Below, piece after piece: positions 851 through 64,000 of a DNA stretch of 64,000 nt. The notes beneath the pieces are model-generated. The model saw only the letters and a list, made by a program, of their open reading frames with translations. It was not told the DNA's origin and did no database searches. The position numbers and the translations under genes are program-made. Numbering within the stretch: position 1 is the first letter of the stretch; the number at the start of each line of letters is the position of its first letter. This DNA comes from Cetorhinus maximus (Eukaryota): positions 33,976,001 to 34,040,000 of the forward strand of contig NC_135903.1 in assembly GCF_964194155.1 (NCBI RefSeq). The letters are read 5' to 3'.

Positions 851-859
851 GATCTGGAA

Positions 860-3399: not shown

Positions 3400-4434
3400 G
3401 TCCTTTTCCAACTGCCCATCACCCCTCTCAGTCTGATCCACCCTCTTTACAAACTCTCCTCCCTTTCGGAAATGACAAAACACGTCACTTTCCTTCAGAC
3501 ACTTTCGCTTTGGGATGAAATTGACACCAGGTTAATTTGCAGAGAGAAAGTGACACGGACACTTTCCCGGGAGAGAGACAAGAAAGAAAGGATGAAAGAA
3601 AAGAGAGCGGGATCACTTTCGGACTCAGAATCGGAGCAGATCAAATATTCTTTCAATCCGACTCTGAAAATGGCTCCAGAAAACAACCGAGAAATGAGAA
3701 ACTTCTCCCAGTTAAAGAGCAGATTGTGGGACAGGTCAATCGGAGCGGAGTCTGTCTCCATGAAGCGGTGTCCCTGGGCTGTGAGCCGAGCTGTCTGCAA
3801 TGTCCAACCTGTGAAGTGTGAACAGGACAAGCGCCAGGTGAACACACCGCGGGGACACAGTGGATTTCAAAGGGAATCGCTCTTCATGGGGCCCAATGTC
3901 AGCACTAAAAGCCGCCGCACCGGATCACCGCTGTCGCTCTCTCTATAATCCGGATGATAAAATCCAGCCCCCGATACATGTTCACACTGCCCCCAATTCA
4001 GAGCCTCCCTCTACACCACCTTCGTACCCCAGGTGAGCTGAAGCCACACAACACTGAGCCCGAACCGAGCGCTGCCTGTGATTTTCAACCGGGGATTTTC
4101 CACTCGCTGCTTCCGGAATCTCCAGCTTTTACATTCCTGACCTCAGAAAGGAAACCGGACAAACTATTGATCTCCCGCAGCTCTTCCAAAAATCCTCGAG
4201 CCCGTTTTCACTTTTCGAATGTAATGCCACACATTAAAGCCGACAGCATGGCAGCGCCAGTGAGAGCACCGAGCAGACTCCACACTCACACTCACACTGT
4301 TCGGCAGCACAGGCGCTCGCTCCCGGATCACAAGCAGCTCCGATTCGACTTTCCCAGTTTAAATCCGCCGCGGAATCAAGAAGCCGCCGGTTTCTCATCT
4401 TTCACATCGGTGTTTCACTCTGGGTCGCTTGATC
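3400..4434 (+). promoter_or_regulatory. IFN promoter type A, copy 1 (CpG-rich, IRF/NF-kB motifs)
   Basis: Contains GGGATTTTCC (kB consensus, 4092-4101), GAAAGGAAAC (4146-4155), GTTTTCACTTTTC (reverse strand GAAAAGTGAAAAC, an IRF-E, 4204-4216), a distal GAAA cluster at 3470-3710, TATAAT at 3944 and TTTAAA at 4358. It lies directly upstream of the IFN ATG and occurs six times in the window. Confidence 0.7.
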
Positions 4435-7400
4435 ATGGCTTTGGCGAGTATCTGGAGATTCTGGATGGTGTTGCTCTTCTTGTCCGGGACCCTCAGTCTG
4501 GGATGTGAGAGGCTGCAATTACAGCAAGTTCTCAACACAGAGACTCTCAGCAAACTGAATGCAATGGTGAGTTGAACCTGCAGCCAGAGCAGGAGGTGAA
4601 TCACATTGCGTCCATTTGTTTTGAAAAATTATATCAGGAGAAGTCGTTTTCGTCCTTGCAACGGTTAATTGTCAGCGGACTGCAGTATTTCTGTTTCTCA
4701 TGTGTTTGAAACAGTGTTTGTCTTTTCTCTCAGGGCGGTCGCTTCCCCCGACAATGTATAAGGGAAAGGTTGGACCTGAAAACCAAGCCCATGGATCTAG
4801 TGAGGCTTTCGGAGGGTTTGCAGGTGAGTGAACACTGGGGCTTATTTTCACTTATACTAACAGAATTTTATGTAAAACCAGGTTGAGATCCACAGCCCTC
4901 GCCCAGAACGTACATAGCAGGTCGCCCACTGATGTGAAGATGTCGGTAGAGATAAGAGTCAGGTCCTGCTTAGAGTCAGGGTTGATTACGTGCTGCGCAG
5001 TTTAAGATCCCTGGAGGGATGTCCACATGTCAGATCCACATCCCTGAAAAACTCAGCAGGTTTGGCAGCATCGGCGGAGAAGAAAAGAGTTGACGTTTCG
5101 AGTCCTCATGACCCTTCGGCAGAACTGAGTAAAGTTAGGAGAGGGGTGAAATATAAACTGGTATAAGGTGGGGGGTGGGGGCGGGGGAGAGAAGTTGGTG
5201 CGATGCGGGGGGTGGGGGGAGTGGTTGTAGGGACAAGCAAGCAGTGATAGGAGCAGATAATCAAAAGATGTCACAGACAAAAGGATCAAAGGGGTGTTAA
5301 AGGTGGTGATATTACCTAAGAAAATGTGCTAATTAAGAATGGATGGCAGGACACTCAAGGTACAGCTCTAGTGGGGCTGGGGTGGAAAGACTGACGACAG
5401 GGTATTACAGTTATAGATTTAAAAATAATGGAAATAGGTGGGAAAAGAAAAATCTATATAAATTATTGGACCAAAACAAAAGGGAGGGGGATGAAACGGG
5501 AAGGGGGTGGGGATGGGGGAGGGAGTTTAAGATCTAAAGTTTTGAATTCAATATTCAGCCCGGAAGGCTGTAAAGTGCCTAGTCGGAAGATGAGGTGCTG
5601 TTCCTCCAGTTTGCGTTGGGCTTCACTGGAACAATGCAGCAAGCCAAGGACAGATATGTGGGCAAGAGAGCAGGGTGGAGTGTTAAAATGGCAAGCGACA
5701 GGGAGGTTTGGGTCTTTCTTGCGGACAGACCGCAAGTGTTCTGCAAAGCAGTCACCCAGTTTGCATTTGGTCTCTCCAATGTAGAGGAGACTGCATTGGG
5801 AGCAACGAATGCAGTGGACTAAATTAGGGGAAATGCAATTGAAATGCTGCTTCACTTGGAAGGAATGTTTGGGCCCTTGGACGGTGAGGAAAGAGGAAGT
5901 GAAGGGGCAGGTGTTGCATCTTCTGCGTGGGCATGGGGAAGTGCCATAGGTGGGGGGTGAGGAGTAGGGGGTGATGGAGGAGTGGACCAGGGTGTCCCGG
6001 AGGGAACGATCCCTACGGAATGCCGCCAGGGGGGGTGAAGGGAAGATGTGTTTGGTGGTGGCATCATGCTGGAGTTGGCAGAAATGGCGGAGGATGATCC
6101 TTTGAATGCGGAGGCTGGTGGGGTGATAAGTGAGGACAAGGGGGACCCTATCATGTTTCTGGGAGGGAGGAGAAGGCATGAGGGTGGATGCACGGGAGAT
6201 GGGCCGGACACGGTTGAGGGCCCTGTCAACGACCGTGGGTGGAAAACCTCGGTTAAGGAAGAAGGAGGACATGTCAGAGGAGCTGTTTTTGAAGGTAGCA
6301 TCATCAGAACAGATGTGACGGAGGCAAAGGAACTGAGAGAATGGGATGGAGTCCTTACAGGAAGTGGGGTGTGAGGATCTGTAGTCGAGGTAGCTGTGGG
6401 AGTCAGTAGGCTTGTAATGGATATTGGTGGACAGTCTATCATCAGAAATTGAGACAGAGAGGTCAAGGAAGGGAAGGGAAGTGTCAGAGATGGACCATAT
6501 GAAAATGATGGCCGTTAGCTTAGTTGGTTAGTCGAGAATAACGCCACCAGAGCGGGTTCAATTCCTTTCCCACTGAGGTAGATTTTGAGACCTGCCGCTT
6601 TGCCCTGCACCTGACATTGGGAGAAAATGGCAAACCACCACCGACAAATGAAAAACTGCCCAGAAATCAGTTCAGGATGAAGAATCAACAGATAACAAGC
6701 CAAGGACATGCCTTCTGGCACAGCGCACCTCCCGCTGGCAGGGATACAATCAACTAATTGGCAGTCAATTAAATATTGAGAAGTCCAAAGACATTCTTTT
6801 CAACTACCGCCATTAACTCTGTTCCCTAGTTACTGACTTCAAAGCTCTACCGAACCAATGTCTGATACTGACTCAGAATATTGGCCTTCTATTTAACCCA
6901 CAGCTGAGCTTCCAACACCATCAGCAAGCTAACCTATTTCAACCTTCGTAATATCACCCATCTCTGCACTTGCCTCAGCTCATCTGATCCTGAAACTTTG
7001 ATCCATGTATTTCTTCCCCTAGACTCCATTATTCTAATACTCTTCAGGCTGACCTCCAACCTTGCGCCCTCTATAAACTCGAACTCACTCAATTAACTGC
7101 TGCAATATATCTAAACTCTAATATATCTAAATATCCCAACGAGCACAATGTCCTAATCAGCCATCACCTCAGTATTCTGAGATCTATTCTGAGGCAATGT
7201 AAGATCAAAAGGCAGCTGTAAGCCTCCAACTGGCTCCACAGTGGAAAGAACCTCATTTTGAATTCGTAAGATGAAAATGCTTTGCCTGATGTTTGGTTAA
7301 ATCTGTGCGTTTCTGGTGCCTTAATGGAGATTAGTTTGGGAATCTGTTTAAAATTATGATGGTAGTAATTTGTAGCCATGTGTGCATATTTTAACCTGTG

Positions 7401-8734
7401 TAAATGAATAAAATATTTCAATTAGTTTCATGTAAAACCTCAAGAACTGGTGGTCTGATTCCTGAATTTAGAGTTGTATCTCAAACATAACACTTAAAAT
7501 GATAGGTTATTACAGTTGTTTAAAGTTTTCCTCAGGGACTTTTAAATAACTCAGCTGCACCAACTGCATCGCCCCAGCTTCCAAACCAGCAACATCTCTT
7601 TTTTTATATACTCATGCTGGTTTTGCCCCTTGCATTTTTTGTAACTTCCTCCAGGCCCCAACAACCCTTCCAGATCTCTGTGTTACATCCAATGTTCTCA
7701 TCATGCTCATTCCAGATGTTCATTGCTCCATCACTGTGTAGCTGTGCCTTCATCTGTCTGGCCCTTAAGCTCTGGAATTAACTCCTTCCTAACTCTCTCT
7801 CCTCTGTAATTGCCTCCTAAAAGCCTAACTCTGAGCAAACATTCCACCTCCTTTTGTGGCTGGGTGTAAATTTTCTTTGATAATGCCCCTGTGAACCTTC
7901 TTGAGGTTTTTCACTATGTTAAATGTCCTACATAAATGCAAGTTGTTATTGTTGGTATCATGGGACCAATTGGAACTGTACATAGACTGGTCTAAATGGG
8001 GTGTGAGGTCACCATCAGCAGAGAGTCTCAAAGTGTTTGGCCAGGTGATAGATCTTCAGTGCCAGTTGGACTGTAGAGTTTGCATCAGTACTAGCCTGTA
8101 CCACCTAGTAACTACATTTCAGGGAATATAATAATCAGTTAAATAGAGGCAGCAACTTTATTGATGTGATGTAATTAGTCACTTTCTCCTGAGCAACAGC
8201 AAGGATTAACTGTGAAATTTGCACCAGCCCTGACTGGTTACACAGGAACAGGTCCTCTCTAATGTCCTTGTGAATATTTCTCACAGGCCCAGGACAGGAT
8301 CCAGATTGTCCATCAAACCCTGCGTCACATCAGCAAGATCTACAGCATGAACCTGGGCTCAGTCACGTGGCCCCGAGACAAGGTGGAAAACGTCCGGCTT
8401 CTCCTGGATCGGCAGCTCAGCGAGCTGGAAGAATGTGTCAGGGAACCAGGGTCAGAGCACAAGATGAGGAGAAACTCCGCCATTCAAAAATACTTCAGGA
8501 AACTTCGAAAGTTTCTCAAACAGAAGGTGAGACAATAAATAATTGACAGTGTGATTACTGCCATGTCGTTCATTCAGCTGCATTTAAATCTGTTCATTCT
8601 CTAATGAGGTTTCCTGAATGATTTCTCTTTTTCAGGGATTCAGTGACTGTGCCTGGGAAATAATCCGCACTGAGACCAGGACCCGTTTACAACAGCTCCT
8701 TTTCGTAACGGCACAAATCAACAGAAGAAACTGA
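4435..8734 (+). CDS. IFN: Type I interferon, copy 1 (divergent; 4 exons, 186 aa)
   Basis: Exons 4435-4566, 4734-4823, 8287-8526 and 8636-8734, all GT-AG phase 0. Translation: MALASIWRFWMVLLFLSGTLSLG/CERLQLQQVLNTETLSKLNAM-GGRFPRQCIRERLDLKTKPMDLVRLSEGLQ-AQDRIQIVHQTLRHISKIYSMNLGSVTW...ELEECV...KYFRKLRKFLKQK-GFSDCAWEIIRTETRTRLQQLLFVTAQINRRN*. It has a signal peptide, 4 Cys and the CAWE motif. Confidence 0.95.
5040..6510 (-). mobile_element. Penelope-like retroelement 3' part (RT thumb and GIY-YIG endonuclease) in intron 2 of copy 1
   Basis: ORF 5463-6272 contains VPLVLTYHP, a Cys knuckle CPRRRCNTC and VHCIRCSQCSLLYIGETKCKLGDCFAEHL (GIY-YIG). The flank carries a gaagggtc...cgaaacgtcaac-type terminal motif. 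Confidence 0.88.
6510..6730 (+). mobile_element. tRNA-derived SINE-like fragment
   Basis: A-box-like TAGCTTAGTTGG and B-box-like GGTTCAATTCC at 6516-6565, with no complete cloverleaf. Confidence 0.5.
6830..7950 (+). mobile_element. Degenerate L2/CR1-type LINE 3' fragment, interrupted at about 7230-7570
   Basis: Decayed sequence resembling L2 RT C-terminal motifs (NLRNIT.L...LSSSD.ETLIH.F...RL.YSN.L.A.L), ending in an aaatgcaagttgttattgttg-type tail. Confidence 0.5.
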
Positions 8735-9840
8735 AAAAAAATTCCAGTAGTAGAGACTAAATTAATTTATTTAAATTACCTCCTATTTATAAAAATAATT
8801 ATATCTTATTGTATTTTATTGTATTGCTGAGATGACACTTTGATGCTTGGTGGCCGATGGAGAGCAAAGAATATCTTGATGCCACTTTATATTTGATTAT
8901 TTGTTTCAATTTATTGATAGTTCTCGCTCTGATATTTTTCTGTGTTGAAATGTTAAATGTTTCACGAGGGGAAAAATCTGAGGAAAAATGCTATTTCTGT
9001 CCCTCCCTTTATTGGCTGGCAGTGGCTGCAATAACAGTTTCATTTCACCTTTGCTCTGTTAAGCACCTGATTCCAGTCGTTGGATATCCAGCGTAGATTC
9101 TCTGAACTGGCCCACGTAGCTTGCTCCTAATGCTCCTTATCTTATCTGCATTGAGTTAAACTGAATGCCATGATGCCTTTCTGCAATAGATGTTACGGTT
9201 TTTAAGGTGTAAAATCAAAAATGAAAAGAAGGAACTGAAGATTTTTCAATGACAAGTTTTATACAGATTGAAAAGATAATAAGTTATTTTAGAGTCCTCA
9301 CTTTTTAAAGAAGTATAATATTTTATGCATACAGAATGCAAAGTATCATTAATTATAAAGTTCTGTCAGCTTGGCTCAATGCTGGCACTCTGAGGCAGAA
9401 AGTGGTAGGTTCAAACCCCACTCCAAAGGTTTAATTTCCATTGAGTTTTATGAAGCTCCTTATCCAACTGCTGGACTTCCAGTGACAATTCTGCACTGGA
9501 AATGGTCTGGCCATTCCACAACTCTGGTTTCCAGGTTACTCTCAGGCTCAAGGGTGGGGTTGCAGCCCAATGACCACTGACCTTATTCCTGTTCCACAGT
9601 AACCTTTACATTTCTGCTCTCCAAGACGTCAACACTGCAACTAATTCCACGTCATTTTAATGTATTGATATTTATCATTGTGATGCCTTTGTGTAATGAA
9701 TTGCTACAGTTTTATACAATGTATGAAGTGAGTTCAAAAAGAAATGTTAATTTATTGATATTTAAGATTTGCGAAATTAGTGTTTTTTTTATAAAACTGA
9801 AAACTTTTTATGTTGAAGGAAAGCATGTTTGTAATAGCTC

Positions 9841-10420
9841 AAATCAGCAGAAGAAACTGAAAAAGACATGTTTACTACAGGCTGGGAGCAATGAATATTT
9901 ATTTTTAAAAACTTTCAATTTAAAGCTATTTCCATATATATTTGTAACAAATTTTATATTTTATTGTACTGATCACAGAACAATCAGTGACATGATGGTA
10001 TTATTTATTTTATTTATTGATTGATATTTATTGCTGTGACATTTTCACCTGATGTAATCCTAAACCTTCAGTGGCTGGGGTGTCTGCTCTGGAATTTACT
10101 GTCAGGCTTTCAAGATATGGGTTTGCAGACCTATAAACCCTGGGCTGCACTGACCTTTCCATTTCTCCCTTCCTAAGTTAAGTGGCCAACTTTCCAATCT
10201 ATTTCAGCCACTGTAATTTATTGATCTTTATTGTTGTGATGTCTTCATATAATGAAATATTACAGTGTTATACAATGTATAACGTGAGTTTTTCACAATA
10301 ACTTATTTAATGATATTTATTAAGATTTGGGGAACACACAATGTTTTTTGTAACTGGAAAATTGTATATACAATGAGAGCCTTTTCCTGTAAATAAATTA
10401 TTTTCAATATTACGCATTAA
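9841..10420 (+). pseudogene. Remnant of an additional IFN gene: last codons of exon 4 plus the array-type AU-rich 3' UTR
   Basis: AAATCAGCAGAAGAAACTGA (..ISRRN*) at 9841-9860, followed by the same 3' UTR found after copies 2-8. The rest of the gene is absent. Confidence 0.8.
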
Positions 10421-10924
10421 CTGAAATGACGTTCGTTTGTCAGTTCTGTGGATTGGTTTTCCATACTCTGTATAAATGCTCTGGGTTCTCTTACCTGCTG
10501 CCTCTTCCTGTCAGTCCTTCTCTGTTCTCCTCTCCTTTCTCCACAATTGGATTTTCCCTCACCCGTTGGAACTGTGACCACATTGTGAACCAAACAGGCC
10601 TGATTTATCATCTTTTAACCCTCTGCTTCTCAAGGCCATATTCCAGCTCCAAATGAGAGAGGACTGAACGTTATGTTCAGGACAGACAAGTGGAAAATGG
10701 AGGCAATAATTGGAAATGGACAGATGGAAAAATGGAATAGTTGGATGTAGGAGATGACTGGAGTGTCAGCCATAGTGAAGATATGGGGACAACAGACAAT
10801 GGGGTTAAAAGTGACATCAGGCAATGAGTAGGAAGGAGATGACTGGAGAGTGGGGATGAAAATCTCTTATTTCGCATTGTGGTTTGCACCTTCTGAAAAT
10901 CTGCATGTTAAACACTGTCTGCAT

Positions 10925-11720
10925 TACATAAGAACAGAAAAAAAATAGAAGGATTAGGCCATTTGGCCACTCAAGCCTGCTCCACCATTCAATAATATTC
11001 TGACTGATTTGATTGTGGCCTGAAATTCACTTCCCTGCCTTCCACCCATAACATTTGACTCCTTTGTTGATCAAATTCTATATAACTCAGTTTTGGATAT
11101 ATTCAGTAACCCAACCTCTACTGTTCTCTGGGGTGAAGAAATTCAAAGGTTAATGACACTCGGCACAAAAGAAATCCTCCTCATCTCCATGTCACATGCA
11201 GTTGCCGTACTCTGAAACTGTGAACCTGAATCCCCCTCCCGCCCTCACCCCATTCCAGATTCCTCCAGAGAGGAAATATCTCAATACCTACCCGTTCAAA
11301 TCTCCTCACAATCTTAAATGATTCAATGACATCACCTCTCATTCTTCAAAACTCGAAGGAGTATAGGCTCAACCTGGTTAAGATTGCTTCATAAACCAAC
11401 TTCTCTTTCCAGGAATCAACCTGGTGAACCCTCTCTGAAGTGTCTCCAATGCAAGTTAATCGCTGCTTAAATAAGGAGACCAAAGCTGTACATAGTACTC
11501 CAGGCCTGGTCTCACAAATGGCCTGTAGAGTTGAAGCAAAACTTCCCTAATTGTATTCTTCATCCTCTTTGCAATAAAGGACAACATACCATTTACCTTT
11601 CCAATTAATTGCTCTACCTGTTTGCTAAATTTTCATTGCTCAGGTCCAAGGACACCCAGGTCCCTCTGCACTGAAAGATTCTGTGTTCTTTCTCCATTTA
11701 AACAACATTCTGACTTTCTG
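10925..11720 (-). mobile_element. CR1 LINE 3' fragment in the intergenic spacer, repeated in every unit (about 20365-21125, 27915-28670, 31720-32490, 38360-39110, 42125-42890, 51860-52610, 62490-63260)
   Basis: Paralogous minus-strand ORFs read QRDLGVL...LLQLYRPFVRPDLEYYVQ.WSPYL. Confidence 0.8.
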
Positions 11721-12729
11721 CTGGGCACAGCAACGGCTAACTTGTGTCTTAAATTACATCAGTCACTATATATCTAAAGTACTTTATAAGCTGTTGAGTG
11801 CTTTGAGACACCTGTGCTCAGGAAGGGCACAATGTGAATGCAAGCCTGTTTTGAAAAAAATATCATCGAGAAAGCTGGGCCTACACACAAAACTGCCCTC
11901 ACTCCAGGGTGAATTTATCAGCAGTGCAGTTGTTTACAGGCCTTCCAAAGGGCCCCAAAAAATAAACTGGATGATTTGGGTTTGAGTACAGCAACAGACA
12001 TGTGTTAAAAGGTTTGCAAAGCAACTTTATTAATTTACAAATACAATAACTATTGCATTCCAATTCCAAAAAAGTGGGAATGAACCAATCCAATTTCCAT
12101 CACCATTAATTTCTACAAAACAGCAAAGGTTGCTTCCCATTCAAGGGACAAGCATACTGACTTGGAACTATTTCCCATTTCTTCACTGTTACTGGCTAAC
12201 ACTCCTGGAAAACCCTTCCCAACACCTCTGTAAATTCACCTACACCACATGAACGGCAGCAGTTCAGGTGTTCAAGGGGGCGGTTCATCACCACCTTCTG
12301 TCGGGTAATTAGGGAGGAGCAACAAATTCTGGCCTTTCCAGAGACGCCCACGTCCCATCAAGGAAGAAATGAAGCCAAATCATGCAAAAGTAGCTGTGAA
12401 TGATCCGCATATTTTAGTAATGTAAAAATGCTCACGCTCCCGTAGGTCCTTCCTATTTCCTCTAATGTCACTCGCCAGTGTTTTTAATATTCTTCCTTCA
12501 GTTCCCTGACCCTCCTTCCGCCTCCGCCTTCAATAATTACAATTCCCACTGTTCTATTCGCCAATAACAGCATTGTTGTAAATTGTAGTTTCTCTCCAGC
12601 CTCCAGTTGGGGAATGTGGGATTCCGCTCCCACATCCACCCGGACGGTAGATTTTGGTTACACTTCCAGCTGAGAGGGATTTGGTGACATTTCCTATGTA
12701 CCCGGGCATTTACCGAATACCCCAAAGCT

Positions 12730-13760
12730 TTTCCCAACTGCCCCTCACCCCTCTCAGTCTGATCCACCCTCTTTACAAACCCTCCTCCCTTTCGGAAATG
12801 ACAAAACACGTCACTTTCCTTCAGGCACTTTCGCTTTGGGCTGAAATGGACACCAGGTTAATTTCCAGAGAGAAAGTGACACGGACACTTTCCCGGGAGA
12901 GGGACAAGAAAGAAAGGATGAAAGAAAAGAGAGCGGGATCACTTTCGGACTCAGAATCGGAGCAGATCAAATATTCTTTCAATCCGACTCTGAAAATGGC
13001 TCCAGAAAACAACCGAGAAATGAGAAACTTCTCCCAGTTAAAGAGCAGATTGTGGGACAGGTCAATCGGAGCGGAGTCTGTCTCCATGAAGCGGTGTCCC
13101 TGGGCTGTGAGCCGAGCTCTCTGCAATGTCCAACCTGTGAAGTGTGAACAGGACAAGCGCCAGGTGAACACACCGCGGGGACACAGTGGATTTCAAAGGG
13201 AATCGCTCTTCATGGGGCCCAATGTCAGCACTAAAAGCCGCCGCACCGGATCACCGCTGTCGCTCTCTCTATAATCCGGATGATAAAATCCAGCCCCCGA
13301 TACATGTTCACACTGCCCCCAATTCAGAGCCTCCCTCTACACCACCTTCGTGCCCCAGGTGAGCTGAAGCCACACAACACTGAGCTGGAACCGAGCGCTG
13401 CCTGTGATTTTCAACCGGGGATTTTCCACTCGCTGCTTCCGGAATCTCCAGCTTTTACATTCCTGACCTCAGAAAGGAAACCGGACAAACTATTGATCTC
13501 CCGCAGCTCTTCCAAAAATCCTCGAGCCCGTTTTCACTTTTCGAATGTAATGCCACACATTAAAGCCGACAGCATGGCAGCGCCAGTGAGAGCACCGAGC
13601 AGACTCCACACTCACACTCACACCGTTCGGCAGCACAGGCGCTCGCTCCCGGATCACAAGCGGCTCCGATTCGACTTTCCCAGTTTAAATCCGCCGCGGA
13701 ATCACGAAGCAGTCGGTTTCTCATCTTTCACATCAGTGTTTCACTCTGGGTCGCTTGATC
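12730..13760 (+). promoter_or_regulatory. IFN promoter type A, copy 2
   Basis: Near-identical to 3400-4434, with the same kB and IRF motifs. Confidence 0.7.
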
Positions 13761-16700
13761 ATGGCTTTGGCGAGTATCTGGAGATTCTGGATGGTGTTGC
13801 TCTTCTTGTCCGGGACCCTCAGTCTGGGATGTGACAGGCTGCAGTTACAGCAAGTTCTCAACACAGAGACTCTCAGCAAACTGAATGCAATGGTGAGTTG
13901 AACCCAAAACACCGAGTCGGTAATTATGTTGAGGGGAGAGAGGGAATCAGCCTCCAGGAGAGATTAAATCTGGATTTGGGTGAAGGAACAAATGGGATCT
14001 GAGAGGAAATTGGAAAGCAGACATTGAGGAGGAGGGCGCTCAATGACGGAAGAAGCGGAATGTGAACCTGAAGGGGGAGAGGGGGCAAATCAGAGACAGC
14101 CCATCAGTAACAACCATTCAGAATAATAGAGCCACTTTAAGGTCTCAAGGTGCCTCACGGGAATGTTATACAGCAACATTTGTTGTGGTGGGCACAGCAA
14201 GATTTCAAACTTTGCAGATGATACAAATTTTGGAAATGTTGTCAACTGTGATGCGGATGGTGCTGAACTTAAAAACGACATTGGCATGTTTGTGGATTGG
14301 GCAGACAAGTGGCAGATGAAGTTCAATGTAGAGAAATGTGAGGTGATACGTTTTGGGAGGCAAGATAAGGCGAGACCTTATAAAATAAAGGGAGTGACTC
14401 TACAGGATGTGCAGGAACAGAGGGACCTCGGTGTATATGCGGATTGGTCATTGAAGATGGCAGGGCATATTGAGAGCAGTTAATAAAGAATATACTAGCA
14501 TAGGCTTTATTAATTGTGGCGTTGAGTAGAAGAGAAAAGAGGTCATGTCGAACTTGTATAAGACACCAGTTAGGCATCATCTGGAGTACTGTTCTGGGCA
14601 CCATACTTGAGGAAGGATGTAAGGGTATTGTTGAGAGTACAGAGGAGGTTAACAAGAATCATTCCCAGGATAACGAACTGTAGCTACGCGGGAGGATTGG
14701 AGAGGTTGTCACTGTTTTCCTTGGAGAAAAGAATGTGGAGATTAGGCTTAATTGAGGAACTCAAGGTACCCTGTGGGGTATGGACAGCGTTAATAATAAG
14801 AAACCGTCTCCACGAAAACGAACATCAAGAAATATAGGGCACAGGTTGAAAATAGTTGGCAAAGGGAGTAAATGTGATATGAGGAGCAATTTTTGAACCC
14901 AGGGTGTGATTGGAGCAAACTTCACGCAGTGCTTTCAATATTTGAAAATGAGGGTGAGAATTTTAAAATGAAGGTATTTCTTATCCAGGAGACTGACGCT
15001 GTGTTTTGTTTGATCTCCCTGAGGAGATGCATGTCGAACAGAAATAGAAAGGGACCTAAAATAGATTCTTGGGGACACAGAGGCTAAACGTTGGGGCTGG
15101 GTGGGTGATGGTGGGGAAGAGATGCCATTCTGGGCTTTTACAGTCTGCATTTAGACAGTGGGAGCCAGGCAGTGTATCCCCAACCAGCAGGCCCATGGTG
15201 GAGAAAGTTGAATTCTGATGTTCATGTCGACTATGTCACAGGGCTAGAAGGAGGAGAATGTTTTACATATGTCACGGGCATGTTGAATGTAATTTATGAA
15301 TTTGCCTATCACCTTATGGAGATCTTGTGATGCAATGGGTCGGACCTGCTTTCAGGCAGAGAACTCAAGAACAAGTACAGCCTTATAATGAATCAATGTT
15401 ACCAAATGCCCCTTCATTGCCCCCTTAATGCGAATCCGTTCAATTTGGAGGAAGCATGATAATGTTCCCAAAACATTGTTAAAACTGTTGATCCAAATTA
15501 TTAGAACTTTGAGCTGGAACCGAGCGCGGGTTGTGATTTTCTCTCGGGCATCTTCCAGTCACTGGTTCAGGAATCTCCAGATTTCAGATTCCTTACCTCA
15601 GACAGGGAGCAGACAAACTCTTCCTCTCCTGAAGTCCTTCCAAAACTCCCGCAACCAGATTTCACTTATAGAGTGTAATAGCAACATCGCCAGTCCCCCC
15701 TCTTCACAGCGACAGCTCCTCCCAGCACAATTCTCACACAAACATACACAAACAGGACTGGACATTCAGGCGGTCGCTCCGGCTTCACAAGCTGCAGCAT
15801 TTCCACTCCTCGTGTTTCATTCGCTTCAAAGTAACAGACTTTCGGAGTTGATCCCAGATCCGGTCAGTGTCTGATCCTCAACTCGGGGTGTTTCACTCTG
15901 GGTCGCTTGATCATGGCTTTGGCGAGTATCTGGAGAATTTGGATGGTGTTGCTCTTCTTGTCCGGGACCCTCAGTCATATTTCTTGATGTTCGCTTTCGT
16001 GGAAACGGTTTCTTATTATTTACGCTGTCCATACCCCACAGGCTATCTTGAGTTCCTCAATTAAGCCTAATCTCCACATTCTTTTCTCCAAGGAAAACAG
16101 TGACAACCTCTCCAATCCTCCCGCGTAGTTACAGTTCACCTCCTCTGTACCTCTCAGGGCGGACCTTTTCCCCGACACTGTATAAGACAGAGACTCTCAC
16201 TGAAAACCAAACCCTTGAACCTGGTGAAACTCTCGAAGGAATTAGAGGTGAGTAAACACTCGGTTCATTTGATTCACACAGGGCTTATATACAAAGTAAG
16301 ATCAACAACCGGATCGGAAACTTCCACATCAGGAATTTGGAATAGAGTGATTTGTACCCATTGTGAATGTAGGAGCAGTCTCACTTATTGTATTTCACTC
16401 ACTATCTCACTCATGAACTATATCACTCTCTCTAACCGCACTCACTACTCCCTTATCTCCAACTCTCTCCCTCCCAGATATTATGTCCCTCCCTCTAACT
16501 ACCTGCTCTGCGAGCCATCCGACTGGATCTCCCATCTCCTTTTCCTGCAGGGTCTCTAGATTATTCCGTGCAGACCACTGCCTGATGGGCCTGTTGTCAA
16601 AGGTGTTTCTCTGCCTGAACATTTCTACACGGGATAGGTGGTGAGTCAGGTTCCAAAGGCTTCGAGTGTTCCCGACAACAAGGCCAGTCCCATCCTTTGC

Positions 16701-19299: not shown

Positions 19300-19840
19300 G
19301 AAAGATGTTTAGCACAGACTGGGAGCAATGAATATTTATTTTAAAAACTTTTAACATAAAGCTATTTATATATATATTTGTAACAAATTTTATATTTTAT
19401 TGTACTGATGACAGAACAATGAGTGACATGATTGGATTATTTATTTATTTTAATTATTCATTTATTTATTGATATTTATTGCTATGATATTTTCCCCTGA
19501 TATAATCCTAACCCTTTAGTGGGTGGGGTGTCTGCTCTGGAATTTACTGGTAGGCTTTCAAGATATGGGTTTTCAGACCTATAAACCCTGGGCTGCACTG
19601 ACCTTTCCATTTCTCCTCTCCTAAGTGGCCAACTTTTCAATCTATTTCAGCCACTGTAATTTATTGATCTTTATTGTTGTGATGTCTTCATGTAATGAAA
19701 TGTTACATGTAATTTAATGTGTAATGTGAATTTTTAATGATAATTTATGTATTGATATTTATTAAGTGTTGGCGAACAGATAAATTTTTTTGTAACTGGA
19801 ATATTTTATACACAATGAGAGCCTTTGGTACAAATAAATT
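19300..19840 (+). promoter_or_regulatory. AU-rich 3' UTR (clustered ATTTA elements) and candidate polyA signal; equivalent in each copy
   Basis: Overlapping TTATTTAT motifs at 19335-19480 and AATAAA at about 19832. Confidence 0.65.
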
Positions 19841-45174: not shown

Positions 45175-45306
45175 ATGGCTTTGGCGAGTATCTGGAGATT
45201 TTGGATGGTGTTGCTCTTCTTGTCCGGGACCCTCAGTCTGGGATGTGAGAGGCTGCAATTACAGCAAGTTCTCAACACAGAGACTCTCAGCAAACTGAAT
45301 GCAATG
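45175..45306 (+). CDS. IFN: Upstream alternative IFN exon 1a of copy 7
   Basis: Intact 44 codons (MALASIW...LNAM) with a GTGAGT donor, followed by CR1 sequence rather than intron 1/exon 2. Confidence 0.7.
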
Positions 45307-50300: not shown

Positions 50301-50790
50301 GTGAACATGTCCTCTCTAATGTCATTCTCTACATTATACACAGACACAGGACAGGATCCAGATTGTCCATCAAACCCTGCGTCACATCAGCAAGATCTAC
50401 AGCATGAACCTGGGTTCAGCCACATGGGCCCAGGACAAGGTGGAAAACCTTCGGCTTCTCCTGGATCGGCAGCTCGGTGAGCTGGAAGAATGTGTCAGGA
50501 AAGCAGGATCAGAGCACAAGATGAGGAGAAACTCTGCCATTCACAATTACTTTAGGAAACTGGAAAAGTTTCTCAAACAGGAGGTAGGTCAATTGATAAA
50601 TGACAATGTGAATGCTGGCATGTAGTTCATTTCACCACATTTAAATCTGCTCATGCTCTAATCGGTTTCCCTGAATAACTTTCTTTTTCAGAAATTCAGT
50701 GACTGTGCCTGGGAAATAATCCGCAATGAGACCAGAGCCCGTTTACAACAACTCCTTTTCATCATAGCACAAATCAGCAGAAGAAACTGA
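47340..50790 (+). CDS. IFN: Type I interferon, copy 7 (4 exons, 186 aa)
   Basis: Exons 47340-47471, 47648-47737, 50344-50583 and 50692-50790, with an open frame, 4 Cys and CAWE. Confidence 0.95.
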
Positions 50791-54666: not shown

Positions 54667-54798
54667 ATGGCTTTGGCGAGTATCTGGAGATTTTGGATGA
54701 TGTTGCTCTTCTTGTCCGGGACCCTCAGTCTGGGATGTGACAGGCTGCAGCTACAGCAAGTTCTCAACACAGAGACTCTCAGCAAACTGAATGCAATG
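54667..54798 (+). CDS. IFN: Upstream alternative IFN exon 1a of copy 8
   Basis: Intact 44 codons (MALASIWRFWMMLL...LNAM) with a GTGAGT donor, followed by CR1 sequence. Confidence 0.7.
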
Positions 54799-56912
54799 GT
54801 GAGTTGAACCCAAAACACCGAGTCGGTAATTATGTTGAGGGGAGAGAGGGAATCAGCCTCCAGGAGAGATTAAATCTGAGTCTGGGCGAAGGTACAAATG
54901 GGATCTGAGAGGAAATTGGAAAGCAGACATTGAGGAGGAGAGCACTCAGTGACGGAAGAAGCGGAATGTGACCCTGAAAGGGGAGAGGGGGCAAATCAGA
55001 GGCAGCCCATCAGTAACAACCATTCAGAATGATAGAGCGACTTTAAGGTCTCAAGGTGCCTCACGGGAATGTTATACAGCAACATTTGTTGTGGTGGTCA
55101 CAGCAAGATTTCAAACTTTTCAGATGATATGAAGTTGGAAATGTTGCCGACTGTGACGGGGATGGTGTTGAAGTTAAAAAGGACATAGACATGTTGGTGG
55201 ACTGGGCAGACAAGTGGCAGATGTAGTTCAATGCAGAGAACTGTGAGGTGATCCGTTTTGGCAGGAAAGGTAAGGAGGGACGGTATAAATTAAAGGGAGT
55301 GACTGTACAGTAGGTACTGGAACAGAGGAACTTCGGTGTATATACGGATTGGTCAATGAAAATGGCATGGCATGTTGAGAGAGCTGTTAAAAAGCATATA
55401 GTAGCTTAGGCTTTATTAATAAGGGCATTGAGTGCTAGAGAAAAGAGGTCATGTCGAACTTGTATGAGACTCTAGTTAGGCGTCATTTGGAGTACTGTGT
55501 CCAGTTCTTCGCACCATTCTTGAGGAAGGATGTGAAGGCATTGGTGAGAGTACAGTGGAGATTCACAAGAATGATTCCCTGGATAATAAACTGTAGCTAT
55601 GCGGGTGGATTGGAGAGTTTGGCACTGTTTTCCTTGGAGAAGAGATGGTGGAGATGACACTTGATTGAGGGACTCAAGTCGCTGGGGGGTATGGACAGGG
55701 TAAGTAATGAGAAACTGTTTCCACTAAAGCGAACATCAATAGTTAGAGGGCACAGGTTCAAAATAGTTGGCAAAAGGAGTAAATGTGATGTGAGGAAAAG
55801 TATTTGAACCCAGAAGGTGGTTGGAGTCTGGGGCAAACTTCCTGAAAGTGTATTGGGGGCAGGTTCGATCGAGGCATTGAACAGGGAATTGGATTTCTTC
55901 CTGAAAAGAGAGAGAATGTGCAAGGTTACAAGGATAAGGCAGGGGAGCGCAACTATGTTGAATGCTCTTTCAGAGAAGCAGTGCAGACTCGATGGGCCAA
56001 ATGGCCTTCTTCTGCAATGTAAAGACATTGTGACACTGTGGACAATTGATGCCAAGTCACAGGAGAAGATATTAAAGCAGGTGACTAAAAGCTTGGTCAA
56101 AGAAGTTGATTTTAAGGAGCGTTTTAATGGCGAAATAGGGGGAAAGAGTCGGAGAGATTTAGGTCAGAAATTACTGAGGTTGAGAGTTCGGCAGGCGAAG
56201 GGACCGCCCCCAATGGTGGAATAGTTAAAGTGGGGATTGTGGAGACGGTAGAATTAGAGGAGAGCTGGTATCTCAGAAGGTTGAAAGGCTGGAGGTGATT
56301 ACAGAGATAGGGAGTGTTTAGGGCCTGGAGTGATTTGAAAATGAGGATGAGGATTTTAAAGTCAAGCATTTCTTATCCAGGAGACTGACGCTGTGTTTTG
56401 TTTGATCTCCCCGAGGGGCGGCATGTTGATGAGAAATAGAAAGGGACCAAAGATAGGTCCTTGGGCACACAGAGGCTAAAGGTTGGGGCTGGGTGGGTGA
56501 TGGTGGAGAAGAGATGCTATTCTGGGGGTTTACAGTCTGCATTTAGACAGTGGGAGCCAGGCAGTGTATCCCCAACCAGCAGGCCCATGGTGGAGAAAGT
56601 TCAATTCTGATGGTCTCGTCGACCATGTCAAAGATTGCGGACAGGGCGAGAAGGAGGAGAATAGTTTACATATGTCACGGGCATATTGAATGTAATTTAT
56701 TAATTTGACTATCACCTTATGGAGATCTTGTGATGCAATGGGTCGAACCTGCTTTCAGGCAGAGAACTCAAGAACACGAACAGCCTTATAATCTAACAAT
56801 CTAACCAAAGGCCCCTTTATTGCCCCCTTAATGCGAATCCGTTCAATTTGGAGGAAACATTATATTTTTCCCAAAGCGTTATGAATTATATTGATCCAAA
56901 TTGTTGGAACGT

Positions 56913-57312
56913 TGACCAGGAACCGAGCGCGGGTTGTGATTTCCTCTCGGCATCTTCCAGTCACTGGTTCAGGAATCTCCAGATTTCAGATTCCTTACCT
57001 CAGACAGGGAGCAGACAAACTCGTCCTCTCCTGAAATTCTTCCAAATCTCCCGCAACCAGATTTCGCTTTTCGAATGTAATAGCAACATCGCCAGTGCCC
57101 CCTCTTCACAACGACAGCTCCTCCCAGCACAATTCGCACACACACACACACACAGGACTGGATGTTCAGGCGGTCGCTCCGGCTTCACAAGCAGCAGCTT
57201 TCCCACTCCCGGTGTTTCATTCGCTTCAGAAGAACCGTTGTTCGAAGTTGAACCCAGATCTGGTCAGTGCATGATCCTCAGGTCGGAGCGATTCACTCTG
57301 GGTCGCTTGATC
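56913..57312 (+). promoter_or_regulatory. IFN promoter type B, copy 8
   Basis: A more diverged paralog of 46933-47339. Confidence 0.55.
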
Positions 57313-60300
57313 ATGGCTTTGGCGAGTATCTGGAGATTTTGGATGGTGTTGCTCTCCTTGTCCGGGACCCTCATTCTGGGATGTGACAGGCTGCAGTTAC
57401 AGCAAGTTCTCAACACAGAGACTCTCAGAAAACTGAATGCAATGGTGAGTTGAACCTGCAGTCAGAGCAGGAGGTGAATCACATTGTGTCCGCTTGCTGT
57501 GAAATGTCACATCAGGGGAAATGTTTTGCGATTTGTCATTTTGTGCAATGAATTGTCTGTGATTCTCCAGTATTTGAGTTTTTGGGGCTGATTGTAACAG
57601 TGATTGTTTTCCCCTCTCAGGGCGGACCCTTTCCCCGACACTGTATAAGACAGAGACTCTCACTGAAAACCAAACCCTTGAACCTGGTGATACTCTCGAA
57701 GGAATTAGAGGTGAGTGAACACTCAGTTTATTTGATTCACACAGGGCTTTTATACAAAGTAAGATCAACAACCGGATCGGAAACTTCCACATCAGGAATT
57801 TGGAATAGAGTGATTTGTACCCATTGTGAATGTAGGTGCAGTCTCACTTATTGTATTTCACTCACTATCTCACTCATGAACTATATCACTCTCTCTAACC
57901 GCACTCACTACCCCCTTAACTCCAACTATCTCCCTCCCTGATATTATGTCCCTCCCTCGAACTACCTGTTCTGGGAACCACCGACTGAATCTCACATCTC
58001 CTTTTCCTGCAGGGCCTCTAGATTATTCCGTGCAGACCACTGCCTGCTGGGCCTGTTGTCAAAGGTGTTTCTCTGCTAAGCATTTCTACAGGGGATAGGT
58101 GGTGAGTCAGGTTCCAAAGGCTTCGAGTGTTCGCGACAACAAGGCCAGTCCCATCCTTTGCAACACCGGGGACAGGTTGAAAGTCAGCACTTGCAGTTTG
58201 CGTTCCAAGGGTCCACGCACAGCTTGATGCAGCCGGACACAAATGTAGTCATCAGGATGAGGGCGATGTTGAGTGCGTTTTGTCCTCTGATCATTGACTT
58301 CGTGAAAACTTCTCAACTTTTCTCAACCTAACACCCTATAATTATCTTACTGCCTCTAACCACCTCACTTCCTCTAATCATCTTATTCCCTTTAACAATT
58401 TGCCTCCTCGAAACATCTCCCTCCTGGGCTGCACTGATTGAATTTGGGGCATTAATCACGCAGGCAGGGTGATTCATAGAATCATAGAATGATCTTGTGC
58501 TGAAGGAGACCGATTGGGCCGAATGGCCTGTTTCTGTGCCACATTTCCTATCAACTGCCTCGTGGAAAAAATTAGGTTAGTAGGTACGCACTAACCAACA
58601 TTCATATATTGAAGAAAAATCACCTTTCCCAAACTTGATTGAGTTATGTGATAATGTAGCCGAGAGTGTTGATACGAATAGTGCGCTGAAACTTCTGATG
58701 ATGTCATCACACCTCTGCAGCTCTTTGAATGAATTATTCAAATTATTCCCGCTCTCATCCCCCATTACAATGCAAACTTTTCCTCCGACTATTTATCCAA
58801 TTCTCTCTTGAAAGTTATTAATGAATCAGCTTTTGCTATTTTGTCAATAAATCCATACGCACACTTTTAAAAGACTAATCATCACAAGATCCAGCGCACA
58901 ATCCTCATCAACACTCTCGGCTACATTATCACATAACTCAATCAAGTTTGGGAAAGATGATTTTTCTTGAATATACGAATGCTGGCTAGTTCGTACCTAC
59001 TAACATATTTTTTTCTAAGTGGCAGTTGATAGGAAATGTGGCACAGAAACAGTCCATTCGTCCCAATCGGTCCATGCCAGTGATTATGCTCCACTCGAGT
59101 CTCCTCACATTTACTCATCTAAATCTAGCATTGTAACCATTTATTTCCAGCACAGGAGGTTGAGGACACATTTGATAGATGTGCACAAGGTTATGACAGG
59201 TTTGAATAAACAAGACAGGAAAAAAATCTTCCTGTTACCTCGTGGTGCAGGGTCTAGGAGACACAGTTAGTGTCTCGCCCCTCTGCCACTTGTATTCAAC
59301 TAGCAGCAGGCAGGGGAGTCACCTAGTGGGAATTCCGAAGAGCAATCCCTGTCAGATTTGCTTCCTGGTTGCCATTAAGGGGTTGAGGGGATGGTGCCCT
59401 TCGTTCAACAGCAGTCAGTGCCTGGTCAAGTAACCCAGCACCAGGAAGATGTCGGGCTGTGGTGAAAGTCACAGGGATTTCCACCTACACCACCACAGCC
59501 CTCACCACCGCCCTCCACCCCCCACCCCCCGCCCCAACCCACCCACCCTGGTATCTTGCTCCTGGTAACCACTTAAGTGCCTAACTGGCACTGAATGCGG
59601 CTGGCCTACCATAAAGAAGGTGAAGCAAGGCTCTCCCTGCCTCTCCAGAGATTACTGTGTCTGAAAGTTTCCCATATCCCAAAATAGATTATCTGGCCTG
59701 TAGTTACTGGGTTTATCCCTCATCCATTTTTGAATGGGATGTAATTACTAGAAATCTTCTGCTCCCCTGCCATCATGTCCCTCATGTCTAAAGAGGACTG
59801 GAAGAATGAGGCCAGAAGCTCTGCTACCTCATTCCTTACTTCGCTCAGCAATCTCAGCTGTATTCCATCCAGACCAGGTGACTTTCCTACCCTGAGCGCT
59901 GCCAATATATTAAGTACCTCCTCTTCATCTCTTTTTATCCTACCCAATTTCTCTACTCGCTCCCCCTTCACTGTGACTTTTGAAGCATCTGCTTGTGAAG
60001 TGAAGACAAATTCCAAGAATTGGTTTAGTTCCTCAGCCATGGCCTTTGAATCCCACAAGAAGATTTCTATTTTGCTCACTAATCATCACAAACAAACATT
60101 TATTTACATGCTTATTAAAGGTTATTAGCTTCCCTCTTACGTGACCTGCTCATCAATTCTCATGCATTCTGTTTACTCCTCATTTCTTTTGGTAATTTTT
60201 CTCCATGTTGTCTGTATTCAGCTTGGATCCTCACTGTACTAAGAGCCTAATATTTAACATAAGGCTTCTTTTTCTGTTTTGTTTTAATCTCTACTTCTTT

Positions 60301-61431
60301 TGGCTATCGGGTCATTAACCTTTGGATGTCCTTCCCTTCTGCTGCATTGAAAGGAGTCCAGTGTGCAACCATAAGATCCCCACTTATAAAGAGCCTCAAT
60401 TGCTCCTTTTCTCTTGACTTAGTAGCCTTATGGAGGAGATGGTGGCTTAGTGGTACTTTCAATTGGTTTAATAAATCATAGCTCAGGATAATGCTCTGGG
60501 GACATGAGTTCAAACCCCACCATAGAGGTGGTGGGATTTTAATTCAATCAATAAATGTGGAATACAACACGAGCCTCAGTAATGTTGACCGTGTAATGAT
60601 CATTGATCATTGTAAAAGCCCTTCTGATTCACTGATGCCCTTTAAGAAAGGAAACCTGCTATCTATTCCTGGCCTGACTGACATGTCGCACTTGGCACAT
60701 GTTCGACTTTCCACTGTCCTTTGAAATATTAAGTTCAAGGGAAATTAGGGATTGGCATCAAATGCTGGCTTTGCCAATGATGCCCACATCCCATGAAAGA
60801 ATAAAGGAAAAAAGAATCTTTGATTCAAAAACACCTGAGCCAGATCCCCTTTAAACTCACTAAAATTAATCTTCTCTCTTTTAAACATTTTTAGCTTGAT
60901 TTGTCTTTTGTTCTTTAACATAATCTGTTCTAAAACGAAAGGAGAACATGTCCTCTCTAATGTCATTCTCTACATTTTACACAGGCACAGGACAGGATCC
61001 AGATTGTCCATCAAACCCTGCGTCGTATCAGCAAGATCTACAGCATGAACCTGGGTTCAGTTGCATGGGCCCGGGACGAGGTGGAGAATTTCCGGATTCT
61101 CCTGGATCGGCAGCTCAGCGAGCTGGAAGAATGTGTTAGGAAACCAGGATCAGAGCACAAGATGAGGAGAAACTTCGCCATTCACAATTACTTTAGGAAA
61201 CTGGAAAAGTTTCTCAAGCAGGAGGTGGGTCAATTGATAATTGACAGTGTGATTGCTGGCATGTAGTTCATTTCACCACATTGAAATCTGTTCATTCTCT
61301 AATCAATTTCCCTGAATGATTTTCTTTTTCAGAAATTCAGTGACTGTGCCTGGGAAATAATCCACACTGAGACCAGAGCCCGTTTACAACAGCTCCTTTT
61401 CATCATAGCACAAATCAGCAGAAGAAACTGA
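57313..61431 (+). CDS. IFN: Type I interferon, copy 8 (4 exons, 186 aa)
   Basis: Exons 57313-57444, 57621-57710, 60985-61224 and 61333-61431, with an open frame ending KFSDCAWEIIHTETRARLQQLLFIIAQISRRN*. Confidence 0.95.
58508..59073. repeat. Imperfect inverted repeat (arms about 195 bp) in intron 2 of copy 8
   Basis: 58508-58702 is the reverse complement of 58878-59073, e.g. aaacttgattgagttatgtgataatgtagccgagagtgttgat versus atcaacactctcggctacattatcacataactcaatcaagttt. Confidence 0.85.
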
Positions 61432-64000
61432 AAAATACATGTTTATTACAAACTGGGAGCAATGAATATTTATTTTAAAGACTTTCAATTTAAAGCTATT
61501 TCCATATATATTTGTAACAAATTTTATAGTTTATTGTACTGATCACAGAAGAATGAGTGACATGATGGGATTATTTATCTCATTTATTTATTTATTGATA
61601 TTTTTTGCTATGATATTTTCCCCTGATGTAATCCTAACACTTCCGTGGATGGGGTGTCTGCTCTGGAATTTACTGTCAGGCTTTCAAGATATGGGTTTTC
61701 AGACCTATAAACCCTGGGCCGCACTGACCTTTCCATTTCTCCTCTCCTAAGTGGCCAACTTTTCAATCTATTTCAGCCACTGTAATTTATTGATCTTTAT
61801 TGTTGTGATGTCTTCATGTAATGAAATGTTACATGTTATTTAATGTGTAATGTGAATTTTTAGTGATAATTTATTTATTGATATTTATTAAGAGTTGGCG
61901 AACAGGCAATGTTTTTGTAACTGGAAAATTTTATACACAATGAGAGCCTTTACTGCAAATAAATTATTTTCAATATTACGCATTAACTGAAATGATGTTC
62001 ATTTTTCAGTTGTGTCGATTGGTTTTCCATACTCAGCTCTGGGTTCTACTAACTGCTGCCTCTTCCGGTCAGTCCTTTCCTTTTCTCCTCTCCTTTCTCC
62101 ACAATCGGATTTTCCCTCACCCGTTGGAACTCTGAACCTATTGTGAACCGAACTGCCCTGATTTATCATCTTTTACGCCTCTGCTTCTCAACGCCACATT
62201 CCAGCTCCAAAGGAGAGAGGACTGAGCGTGATGTTCAGGACAGACAAGTGGAAAATGGAGGCATTAATTGGAAATGGACAGATGGAGAAATGGAATGGGT
62301 GGGATTAGAAGATGACTGGAGTGTCAGCATCTGTGAATATATGGGGACATCAGACAATGGGGTTGAGAGTGACATCAGTCATTGAGTAGGAAGGAGAATG
62401 AGTGGAGGGTGGGGATGAAAATCTCTTATTTCGCATGGTGGTTTACACATTCTGAAAATCTGTATGATAAACACTGTCTGCATTACATGAGAAGAGAAAA
62501 AAAAGGAGCTGGAGTTGGCCATTTGTCCCCTCAAGCCTGTTCCACCATTCAATAAGATTCCGACTGATTTGATTGTGGCCTTAAATCCACTTGTCTACCA
62601 GCCACTTATAACCTTTGACTCCTTTGTTGATCAAATTCTAACGCAGACTTGAATATATTCAATGACATGACCTCTACTGTTCTCTGGGGTGAAGAATTTC
62701 AAAGATTAATGACACTCGGTGCAAAAGAAATCCTCCTCATCTCCATCTCACATGCAGTTGCCGTGCTTTGAATCTGTGACCCCCAACCACCGTTCCTGAT
62801 TCCTCCAGAGAGGAAACACCTCAACATCTACCCGGTCAAATCTCCTCACAATCTTAAATGATTCAATGACATCACCTCTAATTCCTCTAAACTCGAAGGA
62901 GTATCGGCCCAACCTGGTCAAGATTGCTTCATTAACCAACTGCTCCTTCCAGGAATCAACCTGGTGAACCCTTTCTGAATTGCCTCCAATGCAAGTTAAT
63001 CCCTGTTTATTTAAGGAGTCCAAAGCTGTACATAGTACTCCAGGTCTGGTCTCACAAATGGCCTGTAGAGTTGAAGCAAAACTTCCCTACTTGTATTCTT
63101 CATCCTCTTTGCAATAAAGGACAACATACCATTTACCTTTCCAATTGCTTGCCTTACCAGCTAGCTAAATTTTCATTGCTCACTTACAATGACACCCAGA
63201 TCCCTTTACACTGCAAGGTTCTGCAGTGTTTTTCCATTTAAACAACATTCTGATTTTCTGTTCCGTGTTATACAATTTATAAAGTGAGTATTTAATGAAA
63301 ACTTATCCAATGATATTTAAACAAAGGCTAACTTTTATCCCACATGACAGCAGTCACTATACACCTAAAGTACTTTATAAGCTGTGGAGTGCTTTGAGAT
63401 GCCTGTAGACAGGAGGGGCACTATGTGAACGCAAGTCTGTTTTGAAAAGAAATCAGAGAGAAAGCTGGTTCCACACACAAAACTGACCACATCCCAGGGT
63501 GAATTAATAAGTAGTGCAATTGTTTCCAGGCCTTCCAAAGAGCCCCAAAGATAAACTTGGTCATTTGGGATTGAGGACTGTAACAGACATGTGTTAAAGG
63601 GTTTGCAATGCAGATTTTTTTAATTTACAAAGACAATAACTATTGCATTCCAATATAACCAGAAAATGGGCCTGTCTTCTTTTCAAGTAAGTTTCAGCAT
63701 TTGAAAAGTATGTTACACACAGCAGGTGGATTGATACTGTTGTTAAAATCCTGAAGTTTTGGAATGAACACATTTTCTGTGTACTAATAGAATTGCACCC
63801 TTTAACATGCTTAAATATGTAAATGAATATTTCAAGACAGTTTTACAAATTCCATTTTAAAATCTTGCCCAATTGTGCTGGTTCATGGTAGATGTCAGGT
63901 TTGGTGATTGGCGCATGCGTTTGAGTGGGAAGTCTAGGAAAAGAATCCCAGTTTTGCTGGGGGGATGGTGTGGGTGGGGGGTCAGACAGGGTGAAAAGTG

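Follow-up and report, generated by a model that had tools for sequence, protein, structure and literature searches.

Three subtypes and probable exon-restricted gene conversion in a tandem array of four-exon type I interferon genes of the basking shark

A 64,000-nucleotide (nt) stretch of the basking shark (Cetorhinus maximus) genome, here called the window (contig NC_135903.1, positions 33,976,001 to 34,040,000; G000:C26:33976001-34040000), is part of a shark tandem cluster of four-exon type I interferon (IFN) genes, in which unequal crossing-over probably adds copies and gene conversion probably evens out exons 3 and 4 across three old subtypes, P, R, and S. Type I IFNs are virus-inducible secreted cytokines acting through IFNAR-type receptor chains. 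The gene family, its four-exon form, and its expansion in elasmobranchs are already known, and the genes have been modeled automatically by NCBI; what the locus adds is a contiguous count of 35 intact genes, with introns marking the edges of gene-conversion tracts. It also speaks to whether type I IFNs follow concerted or birth-and-death evolution, as both probably act here, on different exons, and whole-protein trees of shark IFNs mix two histories. Coordinates below are window positions, except those prefixed with a contig; array coordinates in Mb refer to C26.

A six-frame scan of the window reveals eight CAWE-bearing exons, all on the + strand, and an exon-query search recovers nine copies of exon 1, six of exon 2, and eight each of exons 3 and 4, exactly the counts given in a preliminary description of this sequence, although the array extends well past the window. 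These pieces assemble into six four-exon genes and two exon 3-4 fragments that have neither a promoter nor exons 1 and 2. Three of the genes have two exon 1s in tandem, which accounts for the three in surplus; in one of these genes a 162-nt inverted insertion breaks a first exon. Every junction is GT-AG in phase 0, and 44, 30, 80, and 32 codons give a 186-aa product. The window covers about one sixth of a 385-kb locus: genome searches place 50 of 50 exon-3 matches (54 candidates scored) and 49 of 49 matches to Pfam PF00143 (109 candidates scored) within C26:33.925-34.308 Mb. Gene modeling over 464 kb, free of Ns, identifies 47 exon-3/4 blocks, 29 on the + strand and 18 on the - strand, a count that leaves out one degenerate copy and two divergent genes. 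Thirty-five of the 47 are intact genes (17 P, 4 R, and 14 S) encoding 30 distinct proteins, one of 184 aa; the 12 broken units are seven promoter-less orphans and one acceptor loss on the + strand, and four units on the - strand. Among the matches listed, which cover 15 of the main cluster's 22 members, NCBI proteins labeled Cetorhinus maximus coincide exactly with 16 of the 35 intact models, so the locus has already been auto-annotated.

Exon 3 alone matches PF00143 with 46 bits (E 8e-12) and full-length NCBI proteins identical to our gene models with 93-104 bits, all above the curated cut-off of 26.8 bits, and the membership suggested earlier is thus borne out by a HMMER-type check. In the PDB, the best matches are to IFNs of carp and zebrafish, along with human IFN-omega/alpha (E 4e-17 to 1e-10); all 22 interferons among the 27 PDB matches are type I by name or fish IFNs, and IFN-lambda, IFN-gamma, and IL-10 are absent from the 27. 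All 28 homologues returned, out of 59 candidates, are from elasmobranchs, both sharks and rays. The four cysteines noted previously in the 186-aa products, at mature positions 1, 29, 101, and 136, are present in 35/35 intact locus genes and the CAWE motif in 34/35, and the conserved cysteines align with those of IFN-omega. A signal peptide is called by the hydrophobic N terminus and alignment, and the products would adopt a five- or six-helix fold with C1-C3 and C2-C4 disulfides. The array genes are type I IFN genes, with secreted antiviral cytokines as their predicted products. At C26:34234748-34256600, the motif SDCAWEI is replaced by SGCAWE or CAWER in several S genes, and CPWE is found in one. 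Three P genes (the one with exon 3 at 18853-19092 and two other locus copies) and the white shark proteins P0004 and P0012 have an extra cysteine at mature position 64, and one other P gene has one at position 148.

Papers are cited here by PubMed Central (PMC) number. The array genes have four exons and three phase-0 introns with a long third exon, which is the cartilaginous fish form mentioned in the preliminary description and which PMC5332411 describes as the outcome of intron 3 loss. The proposed IFN-alpha-like pattern stands for the cysteine positions but not for orthology: four cysteines are ancestral in vertebrates (PMC5332411), so the likeness is a parallel, and orthology with IFN-alpha is improbable for these genes, which have three introns where mammalian IFN-alpha genes have none. 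In sharks, the orthologues of amniote IFNs belong to a separate "new locus" lineage (PMC6640115), and we would place the array in the IFN-f/group 3 lineage by elimination from section 16 of the same paper (PP 0.53).

The subtypes are defined by exons 1 and 2 and are common to catsharks, Mustelus, Heterodontus, Heptranchias, and Pristiophorus. In trees of exons 1 and 2, S separates from P/R across shark orders, and the P/R branch has support of 99/99 with 22 selected rows and 100/96 in another tree from which three mis-predicted models were dropped. P and R have a common exon 1 (synonymous difference, pS, 0.05) and a divergent exon 2 (pS 0.60). Within a subtype, copies group mostly by species or genus, and each lineage has thus amplified its own copies; there are multi-member homologue clusters in two Scyliorhinus species (14 and 7), Mustelus (10), and Heterodontus (9), and PMC6640115 includes 49 little-skate IFN1 entries in its Table S2 and describes lineage-specific IFN1 expansion in cartilaginous fish in its section 16. 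The initial proposal of a lineage-specific burst of near-identical genes thus holds as to recent amplification and recent local copies, but not as to a single burst, since three subtypes are common to other shark orders, nor as to exclusivity, since large IFN1 sets are general in elasmobranchs. Phylogeny with chondrichthyan IFNs recovers mostly species- or genus-wise copies within subtypes, and the trees of exons 1-2 and of exon 3 disagree.

This disagreement follows the gene structure. P and S proteins are 44%, 55%, and 87% identical in exons 1, 2, and 3, and their synonymous differences are 0.48, 0.56, 0.17, and 0.26 for exons 1 to 4. The 108-nt intron 3 is 85% identical between P and S and 79% between P and R and between R and S (40 sampled pairs per comparison), whereas segments of the same length from introns 1 and 2 and from the 3′ untranslated region (UTR) are 42-57% identical (48-55% for P and S, four stretches), against a shuffle null of 46%. 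Similarity between subtypes begins about 45 nt 5′ of exon 3 and stops at the stop codon. In the exon-3 tree an S clade is rejected (approximately unbiased [AU] test, p=4e-6), and different subtypes pair inside Pristiophorus (98/86) and inside Heptranchias (100/96), whereas exons 1-2 reject these within-species pairs (AU p=1e-3 and 5e-5, respectively). Within the array, exon 3 of gene 6 groups with that of an opposite-strand S gene at a distance of about 160 kb (support 92/89).

Pure birth-and-death evolution, with strong purifying selection on exons 3-4 and zero conversion between subtypes, might account for some of this: these exons encode the structural core and CAWE, pN (the nonsynonymous counterpart of pS) is below pS everywhere, 12/47 units are broken, and Redmond et al. 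favor this mode for IFN1 overall. We nonetheless consider it improbable, because selection at the protein level cannot hold pS at 0.17 versus 0.5, nor a 108-nt intron at 85% versus ~50% identity, and because species-specific residues are common to different subtypes and AU tests reject congruence. Since protein selection explains neither intron 3 nor the silent sites, we infer that exon 3, intron 3, and exon 4 have likely been homogenized between P, R, and S by recurrent gene conversion, as judged from these comparisons. Birth-and-death evolution, as first suggested for the array, is evident in gene death but is insufficient alone. Gene conversion is known among human IFNA genes (PMC3244034); we found no published description of shark IFN subtypes, exon-level conversion, or tandem first exons, with subscription fish-immunology journals thinly covered.

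The growth of the array is visible as a 69- to 73-kb block present three times in its + strand part, with pairwise identities of 99.0, 98.8, and 98.4%; the window contains the end of copy 1 (1-13002) and, by repeat comparison, most of copy 2 (13003-64000, +). The - strand part has a period of 5.35 kb. Together with a within-subtype pS of 0.03-0.07, the block identities support recent amplification. At C26:34234748-34256600, four neighboring units are almost identical, a very recent local amplification.

Could the triplication, or much of the array, be an artefact of assembly or haplotype duplication? The blocks are 99.1-99.8% identical in most 5-kb windows, and among five block-specific contigs of sequencing run X1, estimated at 1.6, 2.0, 2.5, 3.2, and 3.7 copies against 2.7-3.0 expected, two lie near 1.6-2.0. 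However, two haplotypes cannot yield three mutually different copies, the 464 kb are free of Ns with no IFN match on other contigs in the genome search, and collapsed promoter and exon contigs of run X1 reach depths of 1079-1670, or 13-21x the single-copy depth of 71-89. We judge an artefact very improbable. Depth supports high copy number, and exactly three 70-kb blocks are likely; the read-depth check proposed for the array thus succeeds for the former and falls short of fixing the exact block number. Raw reads of run X21, a targeted capture from another individual, lack the depth needed to count copies. Run X10, from a related organism (code D), has an exon-1 contig at about 6.5x single-copy depth (87 vs. 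13.5), in line with a further recent copy increase in the genome of the window.

A motif scan of the locus distinguishes 22 X, 11 Y, and 16 S promoters. A motif that we take to be kappaB-like, GGGATTTTCC, occurs in 21/22 X and 0/11 Y promoters, and one that we take to be IRF-like, GAAAGTGAAA, lies at about -271 in 16/16 S promoters; both calls use general consensus patterns, and the motif copies are not independent. All 11 Y-promoter genes also have a distal X promoter with its own exon 1, which precede exon 2 by 2.1-2.8 kb, so that 11 genes carry tandem first exons under two promoter types. In every single-exon-1 P gene an X promoter is joined to a P intron 1, the expected product of recombination between tandem exon 1s; we suggest that tandem X and Y first exons would collapse by recombination across the near-identical exon 1 to yield such genes.

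The 7/7 orphan exon 3-4 fragments on the + strand have one deletion junction, with TTCTGT microhomology. This common junction suggests a single event that was later amplified: one microhomology-mediated deletion would have made a promoter-less fragment, then copied to seven dead copies. The same stop is found in 3/7 and the donor is lost in 1/7.

Surplus exon 1s and orphan blocks might instead be working alternative exons, giving combinatorial isoforms of one transcription unit. The frame is open and a GT donor is present in each of the 11 distal X exon 1s, two genes are complete solely through the distal exon, and this exon is chosen in 5/6 informative automatic NCBI models; alternative promoters are also described for teleost IFNa (PMC5127012). 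The X and Y exon 1s encode nearly the same peptide, however, so regulation alone would differ, and besides their stops and the broken donor the orphans sit behind a poly(A) signal. We find this explanation rather doubtful, although less so than the two considered above.

Our preferred reading, that crossing-over and conversion act together on a subtype-bearing array, would involve unequal crossing-over both of single units and of 70-kb blocks, a steady loss of copies, and conversion that levels the 3′ half. In its favor, pN/pS is about 0.2-0.45 within subtypes. The array could be viewed as a set of modules, with three promoters (X, Y, and S), two versions of exon 1 (P and S), three of exon 2 (P, R, and S), and common exons 3-4. 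Viral sensing would induce the genes through the kappaB- or IRF-like promoter sites, the products would signal through an IFNAR1/IFNAR2-type receptor, and many near-identical copies would raise output and supply variants.

The division between exons may correspond to receptor contacts. By alignment with IFN-omega, helix A falls in exon 1 and the AB loop in exon 2; an almost invariant Arg56 aligns with the AB-loop hot-spot arginine named in PMC8980424, according to which helix A and the AB loop contact IFNAR2 in humans and the middle helices contact IFNAR1. Teleost IFN groups use different IFNAR2-like chains with a common IFNAR1-like chain (PMC5127012, PMC12232857, PMC8980424), and the elephant shark has two IFNAR2-like genes and one IFNAR1-like gene (PMC5332411). 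Because exons 1-2 map to IFNAR2 contacts and the elephant shark has two IFNAR2-like genes, subtype-specific IFNAR2 choice is a reasonable hypothesis, and one that three recombinant proteins would make testable. We speculate, tentatively, that the array is a modular system whose subtypes, as old as the main shark lineage split, differ only in exons 1-2, the IFNAR2 face, and may choose among duplicated IFNAR2-like chains, all used together with one IFNAR1-like chain, while conversion might keep exons 3-4, the IFNAR1 helices, uniform per species and tandem first exons might switch between kappaB-bearing and kappaB-less promoters. In the basking shark, exons of class II cytokine receptors (PF09294) are clustered at C16:81337858-81487805, a candidate IFNAR/IL10R2 locus in which IFNAR2-like genes are not countable.

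Among published IFNs, spiny dogfish IFN1/2_sqac, catshark Scca_1, and elephant shark IFN1-3 (GH/CD79 locus) resemble the array in having four exons, 186 aa, and four cysteines (PMC5332411, PMC6640115); on visual comparison with Table S2 of PMC6640115, subtype S looks like the dogfish sequences and subtype P like Scca_1. Compared with these elasmobranch IFNs, the basking shark locus is contiguous and countable, with its 35 intact genes. The NCBI models, named "interferon alpha-F-like," "kappa-like," and "alpha-21-like [Cetorhinus maximus]," carry mammalian subtype names without orthology and come with no subtype, conversion, or pseudogene analysis. Like the array, the mammalian IFN-alpha cluster consists of tandem four-cysteine copies shaped by duplication, gene conversion, and pseudogenization (PMC3244034), but its genes are intronless and at another locus, and conversion in the array follows exon boundaries. 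Teleost group I/II and IFN-f genes at the SCN4A-ARHGAP27 locus also have phase-0 introns and compatible flanks (PMC5127012, PMC12232857, PMC8980424), but five exons; and whereas teleost alternative transcripts lack a signal peptide, both array first exons encode one. A Nav-channel gene lies 0.5 Mb upstream of the array and an ARHGAP12/15-like exon 0.3 Mb downstream, which would fit the fish locus between SCN4A (with GH/CD79b) and ARHGAP27 described in PMC5127012.

Several observations weigh against our preferred reading. P and R are not clean clades, subtype labels come from exon 2 so that clustering by exons 1-2 is partly circular, and the trees were built on 74-80 columns. With two of the five repeat-specific contigs at 1.6 and 2.0 copies, each haplotype may have two blocks or three, and contig depth is a coarse gauge, taken from a run, X1, that could come from the very sample that was assembled. 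The kappaB motif, one element copied many times, is no commoner than in shuffled sequence (6 seen, 11 expected). Orphan pN/pS equals that of intact genes (0.49), so the two do not separate and neutrality is not supported. The best PDB match of the Nav gene is SCN2A, with SCN4A ranking lower, and the sole growth-hormone-family match, at C2096:49984-50109 on a 53-kb contig away from the IFN locus, gives no synteny information.

Within the window, exon 1 starts at 4435, 13761, 15913 (truncated after 64 nt), 23409, 34752, 45175, 47340, 54667, and 57313; exon 2 at 4734, 16158, 23717, 35060, 47648, and 57621; and exons 3/4 at 8287/8636, 18853/19201, 26399/26746, 30209/30557, 36856/37204, 40617/40965, 50344/50692, and 60985/61333, all on the + strand, as are the features below unless stated. 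Gene 1 (4435-8734), of subtype R, has exons 4435-4566, 4734-4823, 8287-8526, and 8636-8734, and its product is identical to NCBI protein P0048 (PF00143 104 bits). Upstream, by self-BLAST and motif scan, 3403-4434 is a putative type X promoter, CpG-rich and with the kappaB-like GGGATTTTCC at 4092-4101. The open frames 3376-3945, 3909-4505, and 5395-5781 near gene 1 were rejected as non-genes, with zero Pfam matches.

The other five genes are of subtype P. Gene 2 (13761-19299) uses the distal X exon 1 (13761-13892) with 16158-16247, 18853-19092, and 19201-19299, and its product is identical to P0037; its proximal (Y) exon 1 (15913-16138) is broken after 64 nt by a 162-nt inverted copy of 14675-14835, and the exon-2 acceptor is intact. 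The spacer between its tandem exon 1s (13905-15520, no strand assigned) contains decayed remnants that we take, from short motif matches, to be long interspersed element reverse-transcriptase-like, a candidate label, and has counterparts after 45318 and 54810. Gene 3 (23409-26844), with an X promoter and exons 23409-23540, 23717-23806, 26399-26638, and 26746-26844, encodes P0035 exactly (PF00143 99 bits). Gene 4 (34752-37302), also with an X promoter, has a shortened intron 2 and exons 34752-34883, 35060-35149, 36856-37095, and 37204-37302. Genes 5 (45175-50790) and 6 (54667-61431) have tandem first exons, X at 45175-45306 and 54667-54798 and Y at 47340-47471 and 57313-57444, followed by 47648-47737, 50344-50583, and 50692-50790 in gene 5, for which NCBI model P0041 chose the X exon, and by 57621-57710, 60985-61224, and 61333-61431 in gene 6.

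The first orphan (29473-30655) comprises 30209-30448, with a TAA at 30413, and 30557-30655, with its deletion junction at ~29473; the second (39913-41063), with the same junction and an open frame, comprises 40617-40856 and 40965-41063. An AU-rich 3′ UTR at 19300-19840, with 11-14 ATTTA motifs by motif scan and a poly(A) signal ~530 nt past the stop, recurs behind all seven P-type exon 4s; AU-rich 3′ UTR elements have a role in mRNA decay.

Elsewhere in the locus, a degenerate IFN copy at C26:34170164-34172494, where the + and - arrays meet, has its exon 1 in the opposite orientation to exons 2-4. A single-copy divergent four-exon IFN1 lies at C26:34294611-34296050 (+), with four cysteines, CAWK, and an exon 3 that is 36-41% identical to the array. 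In a second divergent IFN1, at C26:34302978-34308270 and the top PF00143 match in the genome, exons 2-4 are seen and exon 1 was looked for in C26:34.303-34.308 Mb and not found; it is without the third conserved cysteine, like the two-cysteine shark form of PMC5332411. Upstream of the array, C26:33893986-33895378 contains open frames resembling a transposon, presumably of the Harbinger type, a candidate family label.

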